DNA from: Escherichia coli
Lineage (GTDB): Bacteria > Pseudomonadota > Gammaproteobacteria > Enterobacterales > Enterobacteriaceae
Assembly (NCBI RefSeq): GCF_002854065.1
Contig: NZ_CP024147.1
Reading direction: 5' to 3' (one strand)
Length of the DNA: 64,000 nucleotides
The translations under genes and the position numbers were made by a program. Below, piece after piece: positions 24,506 to 37,086 of this stretch (position 1 is its first letter; every line of letters begins with the position of its first letter). The notes below the pieces were generated by a model. The model saw only the letters and a program-made list of their open reading frames with translations, was not told the DNA's origin and made no database searches.

Positions 24506-26641
24506 TTACTCGCCCTGTTCAGCAGCCGGAGCTTCCGGTGCTGCAGCAGGTTGAGACTGCTCAGTCGCTTCTTTAATGCTCAGACGGATACGGCCCTGGC
24601 GATCAACTTCCAGAACTTTCACCGGTACTTCCTGACCCATCTGCAGGTAATCGGTCACTTTCTCAACGCGTTTGTCAGCGATTTGAGAGATGTGTACCAA
24701 ACCTTCTTTACCGCCGCCGATGGCAACAAATGCGCCAAAGTCAACGATACGGGTCACTTTACCATTGTAGACGCGGCCCACTTCGATTTCTGCAGTGATC
24801 TCTTCGATACGACGAATAGCGTGTTTCGCTTTCTCGCCGTCGGTCGCTGCGATCTTCACAGTACCGTCATCTTCGATTTCGATGGTGGTGCCGGTTTCTT
24901 CGGTCAGGGCACGGATAACAGAGCCGCCTTTACCGATAACATCTTTGATCTTGTCCGGGTTGATCTTGATGGTATGGATACGCGGTGCGAACTCAGAGAT
25001 ATCGCCACGCGGCGCGTTGATCGCCTGTTCCATTACACCCAGGATGTGCAGACGCGCACCTTTAGCCTGGTTCAGTGCAACCTGCATGATCTCTTTGGTG
25101 ATACCTTCAATTTTGATATCCATCTGCAATGCAGAGATACCGTCGCGGGAACCCGCAACTTTGAAGTCCATATCGCCCAGGTGATCTTCGTCGCCCAAAA
25201 TGTCAGACAGTACAACGTAGTTGTCGCCTTCTTTCACCAGACCCATTGCGATACCCGCAACGGCAGCTTTGATCGGCACACCTGCGTCCATCAGCGCCAG
25301 AGACGCGCCGCACACGGAAGCCATAGAAGAGGAACCGTTGGATTCAGTGATTTCAGACACAACACGTACGGTGTACGGGAATTTGTCCATATCTGGCATG
25401 ACTGCCAGCACACCGCGCTTCGCCAGACGACCGTGACCAATTTCACGACGCTTCGGAGAACCGACCATGCCGGTTTCGCCTACGGAGTACGGAGGGAAGT
25501 TGTAGTGGAACAGGAAGGTGTCGGTACGTTCGCCCATCAGTTCATCAAGAACCTGTGCGTCACGAGCGGTACCCAGCGTTGCAGTAACCAGTGCCTGCGT
25601 TTCACCACGGGTGAACAGCGCAGAACCGTGAGTACGCGGCAGCACGCCAGTACGCACATCCAGACCACGGATCATATCTTTTTCACGACCGTCGATACGC
25701 GGTTCGCCTGCCAGTACGCGGCTACGAACAACGTTTTTCTCGATCGCGTGCAGAATCTCACCCAGTTCGTTTTCGTCCAGGGTTTCGTCTTCAGCAAGCA
25801 GCGTTGCGATGGTTTCAGATTTGATGACATCAACCTGCGCATAACGCTCTTGTTTGTCGGTGATGCGATAAGCATCGCTCAGACGAGCTTCAGCCAGTGC
25901 AGCAACGCGCGCGTTCAGCGCTTCGTTTACCGGCTCCGGCTGCCAGTCCCAACGCGGTTTACCGGCTTCTTTCACCAGTTCATTGATGTTCTGAATAACA
26001 ACCTGCTGTTGTTCATGACCGAACACTACTGCGCCCAGCATCTGGTCTTCGCTCAGCAGTTCAGCTTCAGATTCAACCATCAGTACAGCGGCTTCAGTAC
26101 CCGCAACAACCAGATCCAGTTTGCTCTCTTTCAGCTCGTCCTGAGTCGGGTTCAGTACGTACTGGTCATTGATGTAACCTACGCGGGCAGCACCAATCGG
26201 ACCATTGAACGGAATACCAGACAGAGACAGTGCTGCGGAAGCACCAATCATCGCGACGATATCCGGGTTAACTTGCGGGTTAACAGAAACCACGGTGGCG
26301 ATAACCTGAACTTCGTTGACGAAGCCTTCCGGGAACAGCGGGCGAATCGGGCGGTCAATCAGACGCGCGATCAGGGTTTCGCCTTCGCTTGGGCGGCCTT
26401 CACGACGGAAGAAGCTACCCGGGATACGACCAGCAGCGTAGGTACGCTCCTGATAGTTAACGGTCAGTGGGAAGAAATCCTGACCTGGTTTGGCTTTTTT
26501 CTGGCCAACAACGGTAACAAATACCGCGGTGTCATCCATGCTAACCATAACAGCGGCAGTAGCCTGACGAGCCATCATGCCGGTTTCCAGAGTCACGGTG
26601 TGTTGGCCGTACTGGAATTTACGAACGATCGGATTAAGCAA
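24506..26641 (-). CDS. pnp: polynucleotide phosphorylase (PNPase)
   Basis: ORF-track 740 aa trimmed to the TTG start at 26641 ([21 protein letters not shown]...) giving 711 aa; C-terminal KH/S1 domains. Confidence 0.93.
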
Positions 26642-26843
26642 TGTAATATCCTTTCTCTTTCTTAGACAGTACCTTACGGCACTGGTGTTAATACCCGATC
26701 TTCTGCGCATCCTCGCGACTAATGACAACCCTAACCCAGCCCAATGTGGGTAAAGCCTCTCATTAGCCGCGCGAACCTCTGCAACGGAAGATCATTCATA
26801 GCAACAATACATTAGTTTCCAGTGAATTGCTGCCGTCAGCTTG
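26642..26843 (-). promoter_or_regulatory. pnp 5' leader (autoregulatory, RNase III-processed region in E. coli)
   Basis: ~200-nt untranslated leader between the rpsO terminator and the pnp start; role assigned from established knowledge of the rpsO-pnp operon, not from a structure calculation. Confidence 0.5.
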
Positions 26844-26872
26844 AAAAAAGGGGCCACTCAGGCCCCCTTTTC
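26844..26872 (-). terminator. rpsO intrinsic terminator
   Basis: aaaaaaggggccactcaggcccccttttc: GC-rich hairpin flanked by A/T runs directly after the rpsO stop. Confidence 0.75.
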
Positions 26873-26887
26873 TGAAACTCGCAAGAA

Positions 26888-27253
<366 letters not shown>

Positions 27254-27305
27254 TTAAGCGGCAGTATTCTACTCGTAGCGACCTGTTATCGCAAGACGGT
27301 TAACA

Positions 27306-28250
27306 TTACGCCGGGTATTCAACCACCAGACGACGAGGCGCAACGCGGCCTTCATCGTCAATTTCGCCCATACCGATAAACTTGCCGTTCTCACCTTCCG
27401 TAACGCGAACCAGTCCTTCCAGCGGCGCGCCAGATGTACGAACCGGGTTACCATTTTTGAAGTAAACAGAAGACATTAACGGAAGATTCACCACCGTGTA
27501 GTCCGAAGCTGGACTGTCCATTGGCATCAGTAATGGATCAAGTAACTCCGCAGCCGGAATATCCTGCTGTTCGGCTTGTTCGACCAGTTCACGCAGATGT
27601 TCCAGGGTCACCATCCGTTCAACCGGATATTTACTTACCGCCAGACGACGCAGGTAAATAACATGCGCGCCACAACCGAGTTTTTCACCCAGGTCATCAA
27701 TGATGGTGCGGATATAAGTGCCTTTTGAGCAGTGAATTTCCAGCTCCAACTCATTGCCTTCATGGCGAATAAACAGCAATTCATAAACGGTAATTGGACG
27801 CGCTTCACGCGGAACTTCAATGCCCTGACGCGCATATTCGTACAGTTTTTTGCCCTGGTATTTCAGTGCTGAATACATCGATGGGATCTGTTCGATATCG
27901 CCACGGAAAGTATCCAGTGCCGCCGCCAGTTGTTCTGCACTAAAGGTTACCGGACGCTCTTCAACGATTTGTCCGTCGGCGTCAGAAGTATCGGTACGCT
28001 GTCCAAGACGCGCAATAACCCGATAGCGTTTGTCGGAGTCCAGCAGATACTGGGAAAACTTCGTCGCTTCCCCGAGGCAAATCGGCAACATGCCGGTCGC
28101 CAGCGGGTCCAGCGCACCGGTATGCCCGGCACGGTTGGCGTTATAAATCCGTTTCACTTTTTGCAGCGCATCGTTGCTGGACATACCCTGAGGTTTATCC
28201 AGCAACAAAACGCCGTTAATGTCGCGACCGCGACGACGAGGACGACTCAT
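27306..28250 (-). CDS. truB: tRNA pseudouridine(55) synthase
   Basis: ORF 314 aa matching TruB. Confidence 0.95.
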
Positions 28251-28651
28251 TAGTCCTCCTTGCTGTCGTCCGGGTTAACACGACGTTCTTCGTCATGTTT
28301 GACCACGCTGGTCACCAGGTTTGACATGCGCATCCCTTCAACCAGAGAGTTGTCGTAGAAGAAGGTCAGTTCCGGCACGATACGCAGGCGCATCGCTTTC
28401 CCCAGCAGGCTGCGGATGAAACCAGAAGCTTCTTGCAACGCTTTGATGCCCGCTTTAACCGCGTCTTCATCTTTGTCGTTGAGGAACGTCACATATACTT
28501 TGGCATACGCCAGGTCGCGAGACATTTCGACACCGGAAACGGTGGTCATCATGCCCAAGCGAGGATCTTTAATTTCACGCTGCAGGATGAGAGCGATCTC
28601 TTTTTGCATTTCCTGCGCTACGCGCTGCGGGCGACCAAATTCTTTCGCCAT
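28250..28651 (-). CDS. rbfA: ribosome-binding factor A
   Basis: ATG at 28651 ([11 protein letters not shown]...), 133 aa. Confidence 0.93.
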
Positions 28652-28668
28652 AATAAATTCTCCTGACA

Positions 28669-28697
28669 AAAAAGGGGCTGTTAGCCCCTTTTTAAAA
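28669..28697. terminator. hairpin with flanking A/T runs between infB and rbfA (possible attenuator/terminator)
   Basis: aaaaaggggctgttagcccctttttaaaa: perfect 7-bp GC-rich stem, 4-nt loop, T-run on both strands. Confidence 0.45.
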
Positions 28698-28729
28698 TTA
28701 ATTTCAGGTGGAAGGGCTGTTCACGTTGG

Positions 28730-28802
28730 CCTGATAAGACGCGCCAGCGTCACATCAGGCAATCCATGCCGGATGCGACGTAAACGCCTTATCCCGCATG
28801 GA
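28730..28802. repeat. REP/BIME palindromic units
   Basis: gcctgataagacgcgccagcgtcacatcaggc and gccggatgcgacgtaaacgccttatcccgcatgg. Confidence 0.65.
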
Positions 28803-28814
28803 ACCCTAAAAACC

Positions 28815-31487
28815 TTAAGCGATGGTACGTTGGATCTCGATGATTTCGAATACTTCGATCACATCGCCAGTGCGGACGTCGTTGTAGTTCTTAACGCCGA
28901 TACCACATTCCATACCGTTACGGACTTCGTTAACGTCATCTTTGAAGCGGCGCAGGGACTCCAGCTCGCCTTCATAGATAACCACGTTGTCACGCAGAAC
29001 GCGGATCGGGTTGTGACGTTTAACCACACCTTCGGTAACCATACAGCCTGCGATGGCACCAAATTTCGGCGATTTGAACACGTCACGAACTTCCGCCAGA
29101 CCGATAATCTGCTGTTTCAGTTCCGGAGACAGCATACCGCTCATCGCCGCTTTCACTTCGTCAATCAGGTTATAGATGACGGAGTAGTAACGCAGATCCA
29201 GGCTTTCCGCTTCAATCACTTTACGTGCAGAGGCATCAGCACGTACGTTAAAGCCAACCAGGATGGCGTTGGACGCCGCAGCCAGGGTGGCGTCGGTTTC
29301 GGTGATACCACCTACGCCAGAACCGATGATCTTCACTTTAACTTCGTCAGTAGACAGTTTCAGCAAGGAGTCGGAGATCGCTTCGACAGAACCCTGTACG
29401 TCTGCCTTGAGGACGATATTCACTTCGTGAACTTCGCCTTCGGTCATGTTGGCGAACATGTTCTCGAGTTTAGATTTCTGCTGACGCGCCAGTTTAACTT
29501 CGCGGAATTTACCCTGACGATAGAGTGCAACTTCACGCGCTTTCTTCTCGTCACGTACAACGGTAACTTCATCACCCGCAGCCGGAACACCGGACAAGCC
29601 GAGGATTTCCACCGGAATGGACGGACCCGCTTCCAGCACTTCCTGACCCAGTTCGTTACGCATCGCACGAACACGACCGTATTCGAAGCCACACAGAACG
29701 ATATCGCCCTTGTGCAGAGTACCTTCACGTACCAGAACGGTAGCAACCGGACCACGACCTTTATCGAGGAAGGATTCGATAACCGCACCGCTCGCCATAC
29801 CTTTACGTACCGCTTTCAGCTCCAGAACTTCCGCCTGCAGCAGGATAGCGTCCAGCAGTTCATCGATACCGGTACCCGCTTTCGCAGATACGTGTACGAA
29901 CTGGCTTTCACCGCCCCACTCTTCCGGCAGGATGCCGTACTGGGAGAGTTCGTTCTTAACGCGATCCGGATCGGCTTCTGGTTTATCGATCTTGTTCACT
30001 GCAACCACCACCGGTACCTGCGCCGCTTTCGCGTGCTGGATTGCTTCGATGGTCTGCGGCATTACGCCGTCGTCGGCAGCAACAACCAGGACTACGATGT
30101 CAGTTGCCTGCGCACCACGTGCACGCATTGAAGTAAACGCGGCGTGCCCCGGGGTGTCCAGGAAGGTGATCATGCCGTTTTCAGTTTCAACGTGGTATGC
30201 ACCAATGTGCTGGGTAATGCCGCCCGCTTCGCCAGAGGCCACTTTCGTTGAGCGAATGTAGTCCAGCAGAGAGGTTTTACCGTGGTCAACGTGACCCATG
30301 ATGGTCACAACCGGCGCGCGCGGTTCAGCCGCAGCACCCGTGTCACGGTCGCTCATTACCGCCTCTTCCAGCTCGTTTTCACGACGCAGGATAACTTTGT
30401 GGCCCATCTCTTCAGCAACCAGCTGTGCGGTTTCCTGATCGATAACCTGGTTGATGGTTGCCATTGCGCCCAGTTTCATCATCGCTTTGATGACCTGAGA
30501 GCCTTTAACCGCCATCTTGTTCGCCAGTTCGCCAACGGTGATAGTTTCGCCGATCACAACGTCACGGTTAACGGCCTGAGCAGGCTTCTGGAAGCCTTGC
30601 TGCAGCGAAGAACCTTTACGTTTTCCGCCCTTACCGCCACGTACTGCTGCGCGTGCTTCTTCACGATCAGCTTTTGATTCAGCGTGTTTGTTGCCTTTCT
30701 TCGGACGCGCTGCTTTCGCGTTACGACCACGGCCACGGCCGCCTTCGACTTCACGATCGCTTTCGTCTTCTGCCTGGCGAGCATGTTGAGAAGTAGTGAC
30801 GTGATAATCGCTGGAATCTTCAGTCGGTTCCGCGTTATCAGTCCATTTGTTTTCTTCCGCCATACGACGTGCTTCTTCAGCAACGCGACGTGCTTCTTCT
30901 TCGAGTTTACGACGCGCTTCTTCTTCGGCTTTACGCTTGAGCTCTGCAGCTTCCTGCTCACGGCGGGCTTTTTCAGCCTGGGCGTTTTTAGTCATATCGT
31001 CTTGTTGATTGCTCACTTTGTCTTTTTCCGCAGCTTCACGTTTCGCTTGTTCAGCAGCTTCACGCTTAGCTTGTTCTGCGGCCTCACGTTCAGCTTTTTG
31101 TTGCGCCTCGCGTTTAGCCGATTCTTCTGCCTCACGACGGGCTTGCTCTTCCGCTTCACGCTGCGCTTGCTCTTCCGCTGCAAGGCGTTCAGCCTCTTGC
31201 GGATCGCGTTTCACAAAGGTGCGTTTCTTGCGGACTTCGATTTGTACCGATTTGCTTTTTCCACCGGTACCAGGAATGTTAAGGGTGCTGCGTGTTTTAC
31301 GTTGCAGCGTCAATTTGTCCGGGCCTGAATTTTTCTGATTCAGGTGGTCAATCAAAGTCTGTTTCTCTTGTGCAGACACAGAGTCGTCAGCAGACTTCCG
31401 GATACCTGCATCAGCAAATTGCTGTACCAGGCGTTCCACGGAGGTCTGTCGCTCTGCGGCCAGCGTTTTAATCGTTACATCTGTCAT
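28815..31487 (-). CDS. infB: translation initiation factor IF-2
   Basis: ORF 890 aa; GTP-binding motifs (GHVDHGKT); repetitive acidic/basic N-terminal domain. Confidence 0.95.
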
Positions 31488-31511
31488 GCTGTTCCTTCCT
31501 GCTACAGTTTA

Positions 31512-32999
<1,488 letters not shown>

Positions 33000-33026
33000 C
33001 GCGGGCTTTTCACCTCATCCAGACTA

Positions 33027-33479
33027 TTAAAAGTGGGGAACCAGGTTCGCCTTCTGGATATTACTCAGCGCGAACACTTCATCTTTACCTTCGACGGTAA
33101 CTGTGATCATTTCACCGTCTACCGCTTTGATAACGCCCTGCCATTTACGACGGTTTTGTACCGCCATACGGAGAACCAGAGTCACCTCTTCTCCGACAAA
33201 ACGGGCGTAGTGTTCAGCCGTGAACAGTGGGCGATCGAGACCCGGTGAGGAGACTTCCAGGTTATAAGCAACGGTGATGGGATCTTCAACATCCAGCACA
33301 GCACTTACCTGGTGGCTCACATCAGCACAATCATCAACATTGATGCCATCTTCACTATCAATATAGATGCGCAGTGTGGATGTGCGACCGCGAATAAATT
33401 CGATGCCAACCAGTTCAAAACCCAGGGCCTCAACTGGCGCAGTAATCATCTCTGTTAATTTTTGCTCTAATGTGGACAA
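33027..33479 (-). CDS. rimP: ribosome maturation factor RimP
   Basis: ORF-track 33027..33491; three in-frame non-AUG starts (TTG 33491, GTG 33485, TTG 33479); TTG at 33479 gives the 150-aa RimP ([11 protein letters not shown]...). Confidence 0.85.
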
Positions 33480-33540
33480 GCCCACCCCCAAGACATAAAA
33501 AAAGGGCCTAAAGCCCAGTTATTCTGTAGTCAGATAACAA

Positions 33541-33565
33541 AAAACCCCGATAAATCGGGGCTTTA
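33541..33565 (-). terminator. intrinsic terminator/attenuator between metY and rimP
   Basis: On the minus strand: agccccgatttatcggggtttt, a stem-loop followed by a U-run. Confidence 0.6.
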
Positions 33566-33685
33566 TATAACTGAACCCTATAACCGCAACTGCGGTCTGG
33601 AGCACTTTCCAGAAGGATTTTTTCAAATCCCACTACGAAGGCCGAAGTCTTCACAGTATATTTGAAAAAGAACTCTAAGGGAAAG

Positions 33686-33762
<77 letters not shown>

Positions 33763-34019
33763 CCTGAAACGTGGCAAATTCTACTCGTTTTGGGTAAAAA
33801 ATGCAAATACTGCTGGGATTTGGTGTACCGAGACGGGACGTAAAATCTGCAGGCATTATAGTGATCCATGCCACATTTTGTCAACGTTTATTGCTAATCA
33901 CGTGAATGAATATCCAGTTCACTTTCATTTGTTGAATACTTTTGCCTTCTCCTGCTCTCCCTTAAGCGCATTATTTTACAAAAAACACACTAAACTCTTC
34001 CTGTCTCCGATAAAAGATG

Positions 34020-34068
34020 ATTAAATGAAAACTCATTTATTTTGCATAAAAATTCAGTGAGAGCGGAA
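34020..34068 (+). promoter_or_regulatory. candidate ARG boxes (ArgR operator) upstream of argG
   Basis: aatgaaaactcatttatt and tttgcataaaaattcagt resemble the ARG-box consensus TNTGAATWWWWATTCANW; argG is ArgR-regulated. Confidence 0.4.
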
Positions 34069-34094
34069 ATCCAGGCTCATCATCAGTTAATTAA

Positions 34095-35453
<1,359 letters not shown>

Positions 35454-35460
35454 TTCGACA

Positions 35461-37086
35461 TCAACCCTGCCCTTCAGGGGTGGGGTTACCTTGCTTATCC
35501 TCTGTAAACTCCTTTCTGAGCATCACATAATCGAAAACATCATGGTTTGCATCCACAACCCGTGAGTCTCCTTTATAGTGTGCAATCACTTCCTCAAGCG
35601 TTTGCGGCTGTTCCGGCTTTGTTACCCCCATCCACGCATTAATAAGGTAATTATTGTAAGCTGTAGAAAAGATGTTGTTTTCCGTTGTGCGATCCACACC
35701 ATCCCCAAGAACGGGGCTATACCAGATAAACATCGGAACATGATATGCCTGCTGGCTGGCCTCCCTGCCTCCATGAAAATAGACGTTCTTCTTCGTAGGG
35801 TCACGTTCCAGGCCGTGGTCGGCAAAATACATGACCGAGGCGCGGCGATCTTTTAATAATTCAAAAACCTGACCTAGCAAACTATCTGTGTAATGAATGG
35901 AGTTGTCATAGCAGGCATCCTGATCGTCCTGCGGTTGAAACACGGCGCTGGATTGCGGATAGGCGCTACAAGCCGGTTCATGGCTTCCATTTAAATGAAG
36001 AACAATCAGTTTCTTTTGCTGTGTATTTTGCTGTAATGCTTGCGATAAATGCGGCAACAACAATTCATCAAATCCTCTGACATAAACTGTTTCCATGGCG
36101 CGCATGGCGATACTGGTAACTGCTGTACCATTCTGCCGAAAAGCGGATTGCGAACTTAGCCAGAAAGTCTGAAATCCTGCTTGATTAGCCATATTAATAA
36201 TGTTGTCGGGGTAATTATGAATGTCATGGCTCAAAACAGAATCAGCAGTTAAAGAAAGGGGAACCGACAGCGCAGTGTAAGGTGCACCGCTTATTGCTTG
36301 ATTAAACAGTTTGATCTGTTTTCTTTGTGCTTCGATTTGCGGTGTCGTAGAGCGTGTATATCCATACAAAGACATATTGTCGACACGTACAGACTCCCCC
36401 ACAATCAACACGTAGGTATCAATACCTGTATCCCTGACTGATAATTGAAAATACGGCACTGTGTTTGCAATTGAGAGTAATCTTTGATGCTCTTTCGCTG
36501 CTAAAGCAAAATAATTGAGATTGAAAAACGGCGTATAGGTAGCAAATCGCGACGCTAGTATATATGGACTGAACGCATTTTTATTTTTGGCATCTTTATA
36601 AGCAAATTGACAAGCGGAAAATAAACTTCCCGAAATGACAATCAGCAATAATATTCCTGTCACTTTTTTTGTCGGCAAGGAAACATCATATTTTATTATT
36701 ACAGCCAAAAAAAGAAGGGATAAAAAGGCAAAAGCACATAGATAAGGGCTATACATTCCCAGCATTTTGACAACTTCATCCGGATCACTCTGCAGCACAC
36801 TAATCGCAAATCCATCATTGAAAGTTGTACCAAAGGTACACCATGAATAGAGGCTAATACTCATGTCTGCCGCAGTCAGTAACACAAATGGTGCGGCAAC
36901 AAGCAGGCGAAGCGGAAGGGATGATATACGTTTAACAACCAGGATGGTCAGAACGAAGAACAGCAATCGCTGAACCATATGCGCTCCGGAAGAGGCGACT
37001 AAGTTCGTAATACCAAAAACAATAACACTAAGATACAACAACCAATGAGATTTAAAACTTCTAGCAAATTTGTTGAATACTGTCAT
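35461..37086 (-). CDS. yhbX: sulfatase-domain phosphoethanolamine transferase family protein YhbX
   Basis: ATG at 37086 (MTVFNKFARSF...) gives 541 aa; N-terminal membrane segments plus sulfatase domain. Confidence 0.9.
   Translation of the reverse strand: MTVFNKFARSFKSHWLLYLSVIVFGITNLVASSGAHMVQRLLFFVLTILVVKRISSLPLRLLVAAPFVLLTAADMSISLYSWCTFGTTFNDGFAISVLQSDPDEVVKMLGMYSPYLCAFAFLSLLFLAVIIKYDVSLPTKKVTGILLLIVISGSLFSACQFAYKDAKNKNAFSPYILASRFATYTPFFNLNYFALAAKEHQRLLSIANTVPYFQLSVRDTGIDTYVLIVGESVRVDNMSLYGYTRSTTPQIEAQRKQIKLFNQAISGAPYTALSVPLSLTADSVLSHDIHNYPDNIINMANQAGFQTFWLSSQSAFRQNGTAVTSIAMRAMETVYVRGFDELLLPHLSQALQQNTQQKKLIVLHLNGSHEPACSAYPQSSAVFQPQDDQDACYDNSIHYTDSLLGQVFELLKDRRASVMYFADHGLERDPTKKNVYFHGGREASQQAYHVPMFIWYSPVLGDGVDRTTENNIFSTAYNNYLINAWMGVTKPEQPQTLEEVIAHYKGDSRVVDANHDVFDYVMLRKEFTEDKQGNPTPEGQG

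Follow-up and report, generated by a model that had tools for sequence, protein, structure and literature searches.

The window analysed here, a stretch of 64,000 nucleotides of Escherichia coli DNA taken at its full length, carries on its minus strand a complete infB gene whose N-terminal part is built of short tandem repeats and contains internal translation starts (Table 1). The name infB had already been proposed in an earlier reading made from the letters and open reading frames alone (hereafter the sequence-only reading), and it is borne out by the open reading frame and its translation, by identity to annotated infB genes and by Pfam. A 901-nt query covering 30700-31600 is 100% identical to the annotated infB of E. 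coli O157:H7 chromosomes and was found in 5,425 of 5,426 complete E. coli genomes; within the infB repeat, the identity to K-12 is 99.7%. In the 890-aa product, Pfam recognizes IF2_N (twice), IF2_assoc, GTP_EFTU, EF-G_D2, IF-2 and GTP_EFTU_D2, all of them above the curated cut-offs, and the protein thus displays the architecture of IF2, with IF2_N, a GTP-binding domain, an EF-Tu-like domain 2 and the IF-2 C-terminal region. The neighbouring ORF at 31512-32999 fits nusA, according both to the identity search and to the matching annotated E. coli O157:H7 genomes, in which nusA lies directly upstream of infB. On the other side, the ORF at 28250-28669 fits rbfA by position only, which gives the context nusA-infB-rbfA. 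The interval singled out in the sequence-only reading, 31010-31210, corresponds to infB codons 93-159, falls within the IF2alpha-specific Domain I and constitutes the 3' two-thirds of this domain in E. coli infB.

Table 1. Position, strand and supporting evidence of the features described in and around the repetitive region of infB.
Feature	Position	Strand	Evidence or remark
infB coding sequence (IF2-1/IF2alpha, 890 aa + stop)	28815..31487	minus	ORF, translation, identity, Pfam
Degenerate leading unit DPQEAERL, codons 95-102	array extended to 31205	minus	
Predicted long alpha-helix, residues 96-157, only in IF2alpha (Domain I)	31017..31202	minus	AlphaFold2
Seven 24-nt units, octads EAxEQAxR, codons 103-158	31014..31181	minus	Tandem Repeats Finder, in-register copies, lag tests, copy-number variants
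Nucleotide-conserved internal initiation region, codons 151-161 (-21 to +12 of GUG158)	31005..31037	minus	
GUG codon 158, start of IF2-2 (IF2beta)	31016-31014	minus	last codon of the octad array (seventh octad)
AUG codon 165, start of IF2-3 (IF2gamma/beta')	30995-30993	minus	
(K/L/V/M)xEEEARR units, codons 185-212	30852..30935	minus	Tandem Repeats Finder, repeat search; within predicted helix 166-217
Codon-aligned antisense stop-free frame, 216 codons (listed ORF 30684-31328, 214 codons)	30678-31328	plus	by-product, not a gene
Second antisense stop-free frame, 109 codons	31009-31338	plus	by-product

Tandem repeats in infB and the open frames that overlap them

Most of the interval is occupied by 24-nt units arranged head to tail and in register with the infB codons. 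When written in rows of eight, residues 103-158 read AAEEQAQR / EAEEQARR / EAEESAKR / EAQQKAER / EAAEQAKR / EAAEQAKR / EAAEKDKV. The two 24-bp units quoted in the sequence-only reading are indeed present, cagcttcacgtttcgcttgttcag at 31031-31054 and cagcttcacgcttagcttgttctg at 31055-31078, and the repeat search, the lag tests and the translation agree that the reiterated motif which such units encode is AEQAKREA. With Tandem Repeats Finder, arrays of period 24 were obtained at 31022-31096 (3.1 copies, 82% matches) and at 31123-31179 (2.4 copies), and six in-register copies separated by exactly 24 nt were recovered between 31002 and 31178 by the repeat search. Over codons 95-215, nucleotide identity at lag 24 amounts to 0.56 against 0.35 in a codon-shuffle null (z = 7.8, 0/1000), that at lag 48 is also raised over the codon shuffle (z = 5.3), and amino-acid identity at lag 8 reaches 0.45 against 0.16 (z = 9.2). 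The region therefore has the properties of a coding tandem repeat, with in-register units and a periodicity beyond that expected from composition, and the repeat structure that had been set beforehand as a check was found by three routes, namely Tandem Repeats Finder, the 24-nt-spaced copies and the lag-24 excess.

The likeness between the units is, however, that of a repeated peptide and not of recently copied DNA. When synonymous codons were resampled, the observed lag-24 identity of 0.708 stayed within the null (0.675 +/- 0.024, P = 0.10), and identical codons are used at 18 of the 33 unit pairs sharing an amino acid against 16.2 expected from the same resampling, so that no DNA likeness beyond the need of the peptide was detected between units. 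It was consequently rejected that the units had been duplicated recently at the DNA level or had evolved in concert. Since the lag-24 DNA identity is explained by the peptide repeat together with the codon usage of infB, the array is an old peptide repeat whose synonymous sites have drifted. A second cluster is found further along the gene. The EEARRK motif that had been placed within 31010-31210 proved to be a real repeat, but it is located at codons 185-212, outside that interval. It is detected by Tandem Repeats Finder as a period-24 array at 30886-30935 and a period-21 array at 30852-30899, and it is also recovered as a separate family in the repeat search. The predicted helix that houses it, residues 166-217, is common to all IF2 isoforms.

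A long stop-free antisense frame had also been noticed and ascribed to the repeat. The frame exists, and a second one accompanies it, but it is not created by the repeat. In the codon-aligned frame, antisense stops can only arise opposite sense TTA, CTA or TCA, and the 890 codons of infB include four TCA and neither TTA nor CTA; sense TCA codons 54 and 271 are those that bound the frame. The sense strand contains 10.5% T over codons 95-215 and 20.6% in the rest of infB. With the protein fixed and synonymous codons resampled, median lengths of 270 and 118 codons are obtained, and neither antisense frame is longer than this null (P = 0.70 and 0.62). The openness of these frames is thus due to amino-acid composition, to a T-poor sense strand and to the near absence of TTA, CTA and TCA throughout the gene. 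There is next to no probability that an antisense protein overlapping infB is encoded in the plus-strand frames 30684-31328 or 31009-31338: the ORFs, of 214 and 109 codons, do exist, but their lengths lie at or below the null medians, their stops are constrained by rare sense codons, neither frame has a Pfam match or a sigma-70-like promoter site, and an Rfam search of 26500-36000 found no family inside infB. An overlapping antisense gene was rejected on these grounds. A sense +1-frame ORF at 30554-30961 (135 aa) was likewise discarded as an overlapping gene, as it is broken in most other species and has P = 0.055 under the null.

Internal starts at GUG158 and AUG165

An in-frame GUG or AUG had been predicted near codons 158-165, and both are found where expected, GUG158 at nucleotides 472-474 of the gene and AUG165 21 nt downstream, at nucleotides 493-495. 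These are the codons named as IF2 isoform starts (PMC13245402), and their positions equal the published sites of IF2-2 and IF2-3 (PMC13245402, PMC3334882). It has been demonstrated that the mutations g474c and t494c abolish IF2-2 and IF2-3 (PMC3334882), and infB is listed among the genes with a confirmed internal initiation peak in Ribo-RET (10.1101/520783); the IF2 isoforms produced from internal starts are also covered in PMC12297416. The boundaries of the interval 31010-31210 were less fortunate, with GUG158 at its very edge and AUG165 15 nt outside.

The sequence-only reading had further asked for an upstream Shine-Dalgarno (SD) sequence. The in-frame starts are there, but their SD is only marginal, with duplex energies at background. 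The best anti-SD duplex has -3.5 kcal/mol for GUG158 (GCUGCGGAA) and -2.3 kcal/mol for AUG165, against -6.5 kcal/mol for the primary AUG and a gene-wide background median of -2.8 kcal/mol, and no recognisable SD at a suitable spacing before either internal start was found that does better than background infB positions. It has been reported that an SD is not strictly needed for initiation (10.1101/520783), and its weakness does not therefore exclude these codons from the class of internal initiation sites. The lack of a plausible SD, which had been put forward as a ground for refuting the reading, was badly chosen, because the starts are experimentally established without a good one.

The nucleotide sequence around GUG158 is, by contrast with the array body, under strong constraint. 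This was examined in an alignment of the first ~390 codons of infB from 81 Enterobacteriaceae species, this one and 80 others. Codon 158 is GTG in all 81, whereas most other conserved Val codons vary; codons 153-154 are GCG GAA in all 81 as well, and include a weak SD-like GGAA at 31026-31029; codon 165 is ATG in 72 species and another codon in 9. For codons 151-161, a synonymous codon diversity of 0.283 would be expected from the amino acids encoded, and the one observed is 0.045 (z = -4.2, 0/20000), which is the minimum over codons 1-390 and represents a constraint stronger than that at the primary start. The start codon and its context are conserved beyond the need of protein coding, as corresponds to a site of internal initiation. 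Over codons 95-150, the body of the array, synonymous constraint among the 81 species is not significant (0.259 vs 0.295, P = 0.07). Predicted accessibility, which is a thermodynamic prediction on naked mRNA that ignores the ribosomes translating IF2alpha, is the highest of the whole infB mRNA at codons 160-168. By this measure the GUG158 site belongs to the gene's top 2-6%, and it ranks within the top 10% in 20 out of 21 diverse species.

This arrangement raises the alternative that the repeat acts mainly as RNA, as a U-poor, purine-rich and unstructured standby platform needed for ribosome loading at GUG158 and AUG165. The array abuts GUG158, A-rich peaks of predicted accessibility occur every 24 nt upstream of it, and codons 95-215 have the low T content already mentioned (10.5% vs 20.6% elsewhere in infB). 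We nevertheless regard this alternative as unlikely, given that del1, a deletion that begins at -14 relative to the IF2-1 start and spares only the last 32 nt before GUG158, still allows expression of IF2-2 and IF2-3 (PMC3334882), that the constraint is confined to codons 151-161 and does not reach significance in codons 95-150, and that the number of octads varies while the start is kept. As only 32 nt upstream of GUG158 suffice and the constraint is limited to codons 151-161, the internal start is a short, nucleotide-conserved and unstructured site that adjoins the repeat, and the repeat itself is not required.

Both internal starts lie in a strictly conserved GUGA/AUGA context, in which they overlap UGA stops of the +1 frame, and many +1-frame GUGs, among them those at nucleotides 329, 353, 401, 425 and 449 of the gene, are present in the array. 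A conserved long +1-frame upstream ORF that would end at the UGA overlapping GUG158, and would couple the translation of both, is not supported: the +1-frame open stretch before GUG158 has 27 codons or fewer in ~28 of the 81 species, and del1, which leaves 32 nt, still expresses IF2-2 and IF2-3 (PMC3334882). Coupling of GUG158 to a short ORF that opens with the +1-frame GTG of nucleotide 449 is conceivable.

Length variation of the array and predicted helix of Domain I

The number of units varies both among species and within E. coli. The segment aligned to residues 95-158 has 64 aa in 66 of the 81 species, 72 aa, that is, one octad more, in 12, and 63 aa in 3. Searches of E. coli with native, one-unit-deleted and one-unit-inserted queries revealed that ~22 of 5,425 genomes (~0.4%) depart from the common length, by -24 nt (7), +24 nt (12) or +48 nt (3). 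Eleven of these ~22 genomes were fetched and aligned: their alleles have one, three or four copies of AEQAKREA instead of two, have lost or gained AEEQAQRE, carry a duplicated REAQQKAE or combine two gains. In these aligned variants the changes involve whole units, are in frame and occur at several positions of the array, always upstream of GUG158, so that only IF2alpha changes length. Whole-unit copy-number polymorphism of this kind is a further property of a coding tandem repeat. A literature search for earlier 24-bp indels in infB returned nothing relevant. The variant frequency of ~0.4% fits a mildly deleterious effect and a neutral one equally well.

Unit gains and losses at several independent positions in E. 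coli, as well as between genera, are also what would be seen if the array were a contingency locus, variable in phase or length, that switches or rapidly tunes IF2alpha function. This is highly improbable, since every variant keeps the reading frame, with a length change that is a multiple of 24 nt, since such variants are rare (~22/5,425), and since the units are ~70% identical at lag 24 with no concerted evolution, whereas those of true contingency loci are near-perfect.

At the protein level, an AlphaFold2 model based on 20 closely related sequences, with a low pTM (0.24), predicts two helices, at residues 96-157 (pLDDT ~78-91) and at 166-217, separated by a break of low confidence at 158-165. 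With the break in this position, both internal N-termini would fall exactly in the hinge. In helix 96-157, charged residues account for 53% of the sequence and hydrophobic ones for 1.6%, the net charge is -5, and the i/i+4 pairs comprise 17 of opposite charge and 0 of the same charge (P = 0.006 vs shuffle). Helix 166-217 is more extreme, as its i/i+3 and i/i+4 pairs of opposite charge number 37 in all, against 16.5 after shuffling. The model and the charge pattern together present the traits of ER/K helices: great length, dense opposite-charge i/i+4 pairs and no hydrophobic seam. Published work has described Domain I as an IF2N/N1 subdomain (residues 2-50) followed by an irregular stretch (51-97) and a repetitive helix (98-157) (PMC4611024, PMC12297416). 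According to the review of PMC4611024, residues 98-157 are helical and their sequence is hydrophilic and repetitive, the regions past residue 50 are mobile, and this helix is more mobile than N1. It has also been reported that Domain I/N1 binds NusA (PMC12297416).

Given its predicted length and its abundance of Ala, Glu, Arg and Lys, the helix could instead be a coiled coil, through which IF2alpha would dimerise or bind a partner helix. This is very unlikely. The period is 8 and not 7, so that equivalent positions turn by 80 degrees from one unit to the next, which argues against a coiled-coil seam and in favor of an ER/K-like single helix; the 1.6% of hydrophobic residues and the enrichment of opposite-charge i/i+4 pairs (P = 0.006) are ER/K features too. 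Composition and one model of low pTM suggest that residues 96-157 form an ER/K-like single, non-amphipathic helix that would serve as a spacer.

Interpretation and comparison with known systems

The repetitive coding DNA that drew attention to this region is real, and its reading as an infB repeat that encodes a helix and ends at internal isoform starts is, as a whole, the best explanation, to which we assign a probability of about 95%. Gene identity, periodicity, conservation of the start and of its synonymous sites, copy number and the predicted helix-break-helix order were computed here. The use of the starts, the formation of the helix in solution and the binding of NusA are taken from the literature. 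Under this reading, the octads (residues 103-158) would make up most of a highly charged helix of ~60 residues linking the compact N1 subdomain (2-50), which binds NusA according to the literature, to the rest of IF2. The identity left between units would allow rare unit-length slippage or unequal recombination, and the helix would thus lengthen or shorten in steps of 8 residues, ~12 A per unit as judged from helix geometry. The array ends exactly at GUG158, which together with AUG165 is the known internal start that gives rise to IF2-2 and IF2-3, both devoid of Domain I. Internal initiation would rest on a short conserved stretch (about -21 to +12, with invariant GCGGAA and GUG), located where the mRNA is rich in A and has the least predicted structure, and not on a strong SD. 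It may be that accessibility is the main determinant of internal initiation and that the helix acts as a spacer or ruler.

Taking this last idea further, the array might be a length-adjustable ruler for the reach of N1, a proposal that is offered as speculation and has a low probability. If true, the six to nine or more octads found across E. coli and other Enterobacteriaceae would shift the reach of the NusA-binding N1 by ~12 A per unit, and early transcription-translation coupling or replication-restart functions would be tuned accordingly. Weaker still than the ruler is the option that termination-reinitiation contributes to IF2beta synthesis, a share that the GUGA/AUGA context and the +1-frame GUGs might reflect.

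The infB gene, its repetitive helix and its internal starts are already known and belong to textbook E. coli IF2. To this, the present analysis adds the synonymous constraint at the start, the combination of a weak SD with high accessibility, the whole-unit alleles and the helix-hinge-helix model. A functional internal start that has no convincing SD can be recognised by synonymous conservation, here across 81 species, together with predicted accessibility, and where coding repeats are charged and poor in T, the long open frames on the antisense strand are artefacts of composition. It also emerges that rare length changes by whole units, in a helix restricted to one isoform, are tolerated by a translation factor that is essential. 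Given the recent report of NusA binding by Domain I of IF2alpha, the natural length alleles, among them OkiPb01695 (+2), O157 Al Ain (+1) and APEC E19025 (-1), could serve to test the importance of linker length.

With respect to the isoforms IF2-1 (alpha), IF2-2 (beta, GUG158) and IF2-3 (gamma/beta', AUG165) of E. coli infB, there is no difference to report, as the window is the reference case itself. The internal starts of clpB, mrcB and arcB (10.1101/520783) share with those of infB an N-terminally truncated isoform, a start inside the primary ORF and a retapamulin peak. Many sites of that type have an SD-like sequence, whereas in infB the SD is at background and the signal is an A-rich context, both conserved and unstructured. 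In the published Domain I layout, helix 98-157 coincides with the one predicted here at 96-157, and its repetitive hydrophilic sequence is the octad array; the NMR-based layout, on the other hand, has no regular structure at residues 51-97, where the present model predicts a beta-hairpin at 58-92. Compared with ER/K single alpha-helix (SAH) spacers, the infB helix has in common a long predicted helix, more than 50% of charged residues, opposite-charge i/i+3 and i/i+4 pairs and few hydrophobics, but it differs from them in being rich in Ala and Gln, in its 8-residue period, in its net negative charge (-5) and in the relative mobility of the segment described in PMC4611024.

Stop codons and synonymous diversity in the IF2 N-terminal coding region

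Each of the two internal start codons of infB, GUG158 (IF2-2) and AUG165 (IF2-3), is overlapped by a UGA stop codon in the +1 frame relative to the infB reading frame (see table). Across the Enterobacteriaceae set formed by E. coli and 80 other species, the tetranucleotide GUGA was found at GUG158 in all 81, and AUGA at codon 165 in every one of the 72 species retaining ATG165. The codon for Ser159 is AGC throughout this comparison and never UCN. A simple preference for A at position +4 could explain the conservation of GUGA and AUGA. In E. coli the same +1 frame is free of stops over the entire octad array, the seven 24-nt units of codons 103-158, remaining open at cds nt 278-475 with five GTG codons and one TTG; in about 28 of the 81 species the open stretch across the array is just 5-27 codons long.

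Synonymous diversity also falls at codons 104-118, in another dip that is less pronounced than the first. Over codons 107-119 this diversity is 0.137 against an expected 0.265 (P ~0.003, uncorrected). Within the dip, codon 112 is invariably GCG and codon 114 is conserved as GAG, though non-preferred, and the motif GCGGAAGAG is similar to GCGGAAAAAG upstream of GUG158.

RNA elements and overlapping reading frames around infB

Rfam matches the infB-rbfA spacer to naRNA4, a REP-derived nucleoid-associated RNA family, with an additional, weaker match on the plus strand, and also recovers four expected RNA elements of the operon. Regarding the overlapping frames, the 135-aa ORF showed no conservation among the other species compared, its open length there ranging from 16 to 153 codons, and in E. 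coli its length is close to the compositional expectation (P = 0.055). The 571-aa ORF occupies the codon-aligned antisense frame of infB, a gene containing four TCA codons and no TTA or CTA, and looks like a by-product of codon bias.

Features in and around infB (window coordinates)
Feature	Position	Strand	Remarks
SraG sRNA	26700-26871		Rfam
Ribosomal S15 leader	27101-27215		Rfam
571-aa ORF	28416-30131	plus	antisense; C-terminal half of infB, intergenic region, into rbfA
naRNA4	28728-28798	minus	Rfam, 71.9 bits
135-aa ORF	30554-30961	minus	GTG start; same strand as infB, +1 frame
AUGA, codon 165	30992-30995	minus	UGA overlap
GUGA, codon 158	31013-31016	minus	UGA overlap
Second diversity dip	~31134-31178	minus	codons 104-118
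Predicted hairpin	31212-31316	minus	IF2_assoc region, residues 58-92
489-aa ORF	31344-32813	plus	antisense to nusA; resembles 571-aa ORF
rimP leader	33497-33597		Rfam
tRNA, metY position	33689-33762		Rfam

Anomalous records and the predicted hairpin

On one contig, CACSKA010000008.1, titled 'Chryseobacterium sp. 18061', the N-terminal part of infB is of Enterobacteriaceae type (83% identity) and has the same octad array, which is probably due to contamination or a mislabelled assembly. Among the 5,426 complete E. coli genomes searched, the infB segment was unmatched in one and occurred at more than one place in some, with a maximum of five; Nissle 1917 (CP007799) has three such places, the best being 357 nt long at 95% identity, and one place in the collection lies on a plasmid. 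These multi-place, plasmid-borne or absent segments may represent assembly artefacts or duplications.

At the protein level, AlphaFold2 predicts a beta-hairpin whose strands comprise residues 58-71 and 79-92 (pLDDT ~71-88). This prediction differs from the NMR-based literature on IF2, in which the region of residues 58-92 is described as being without regular structure.
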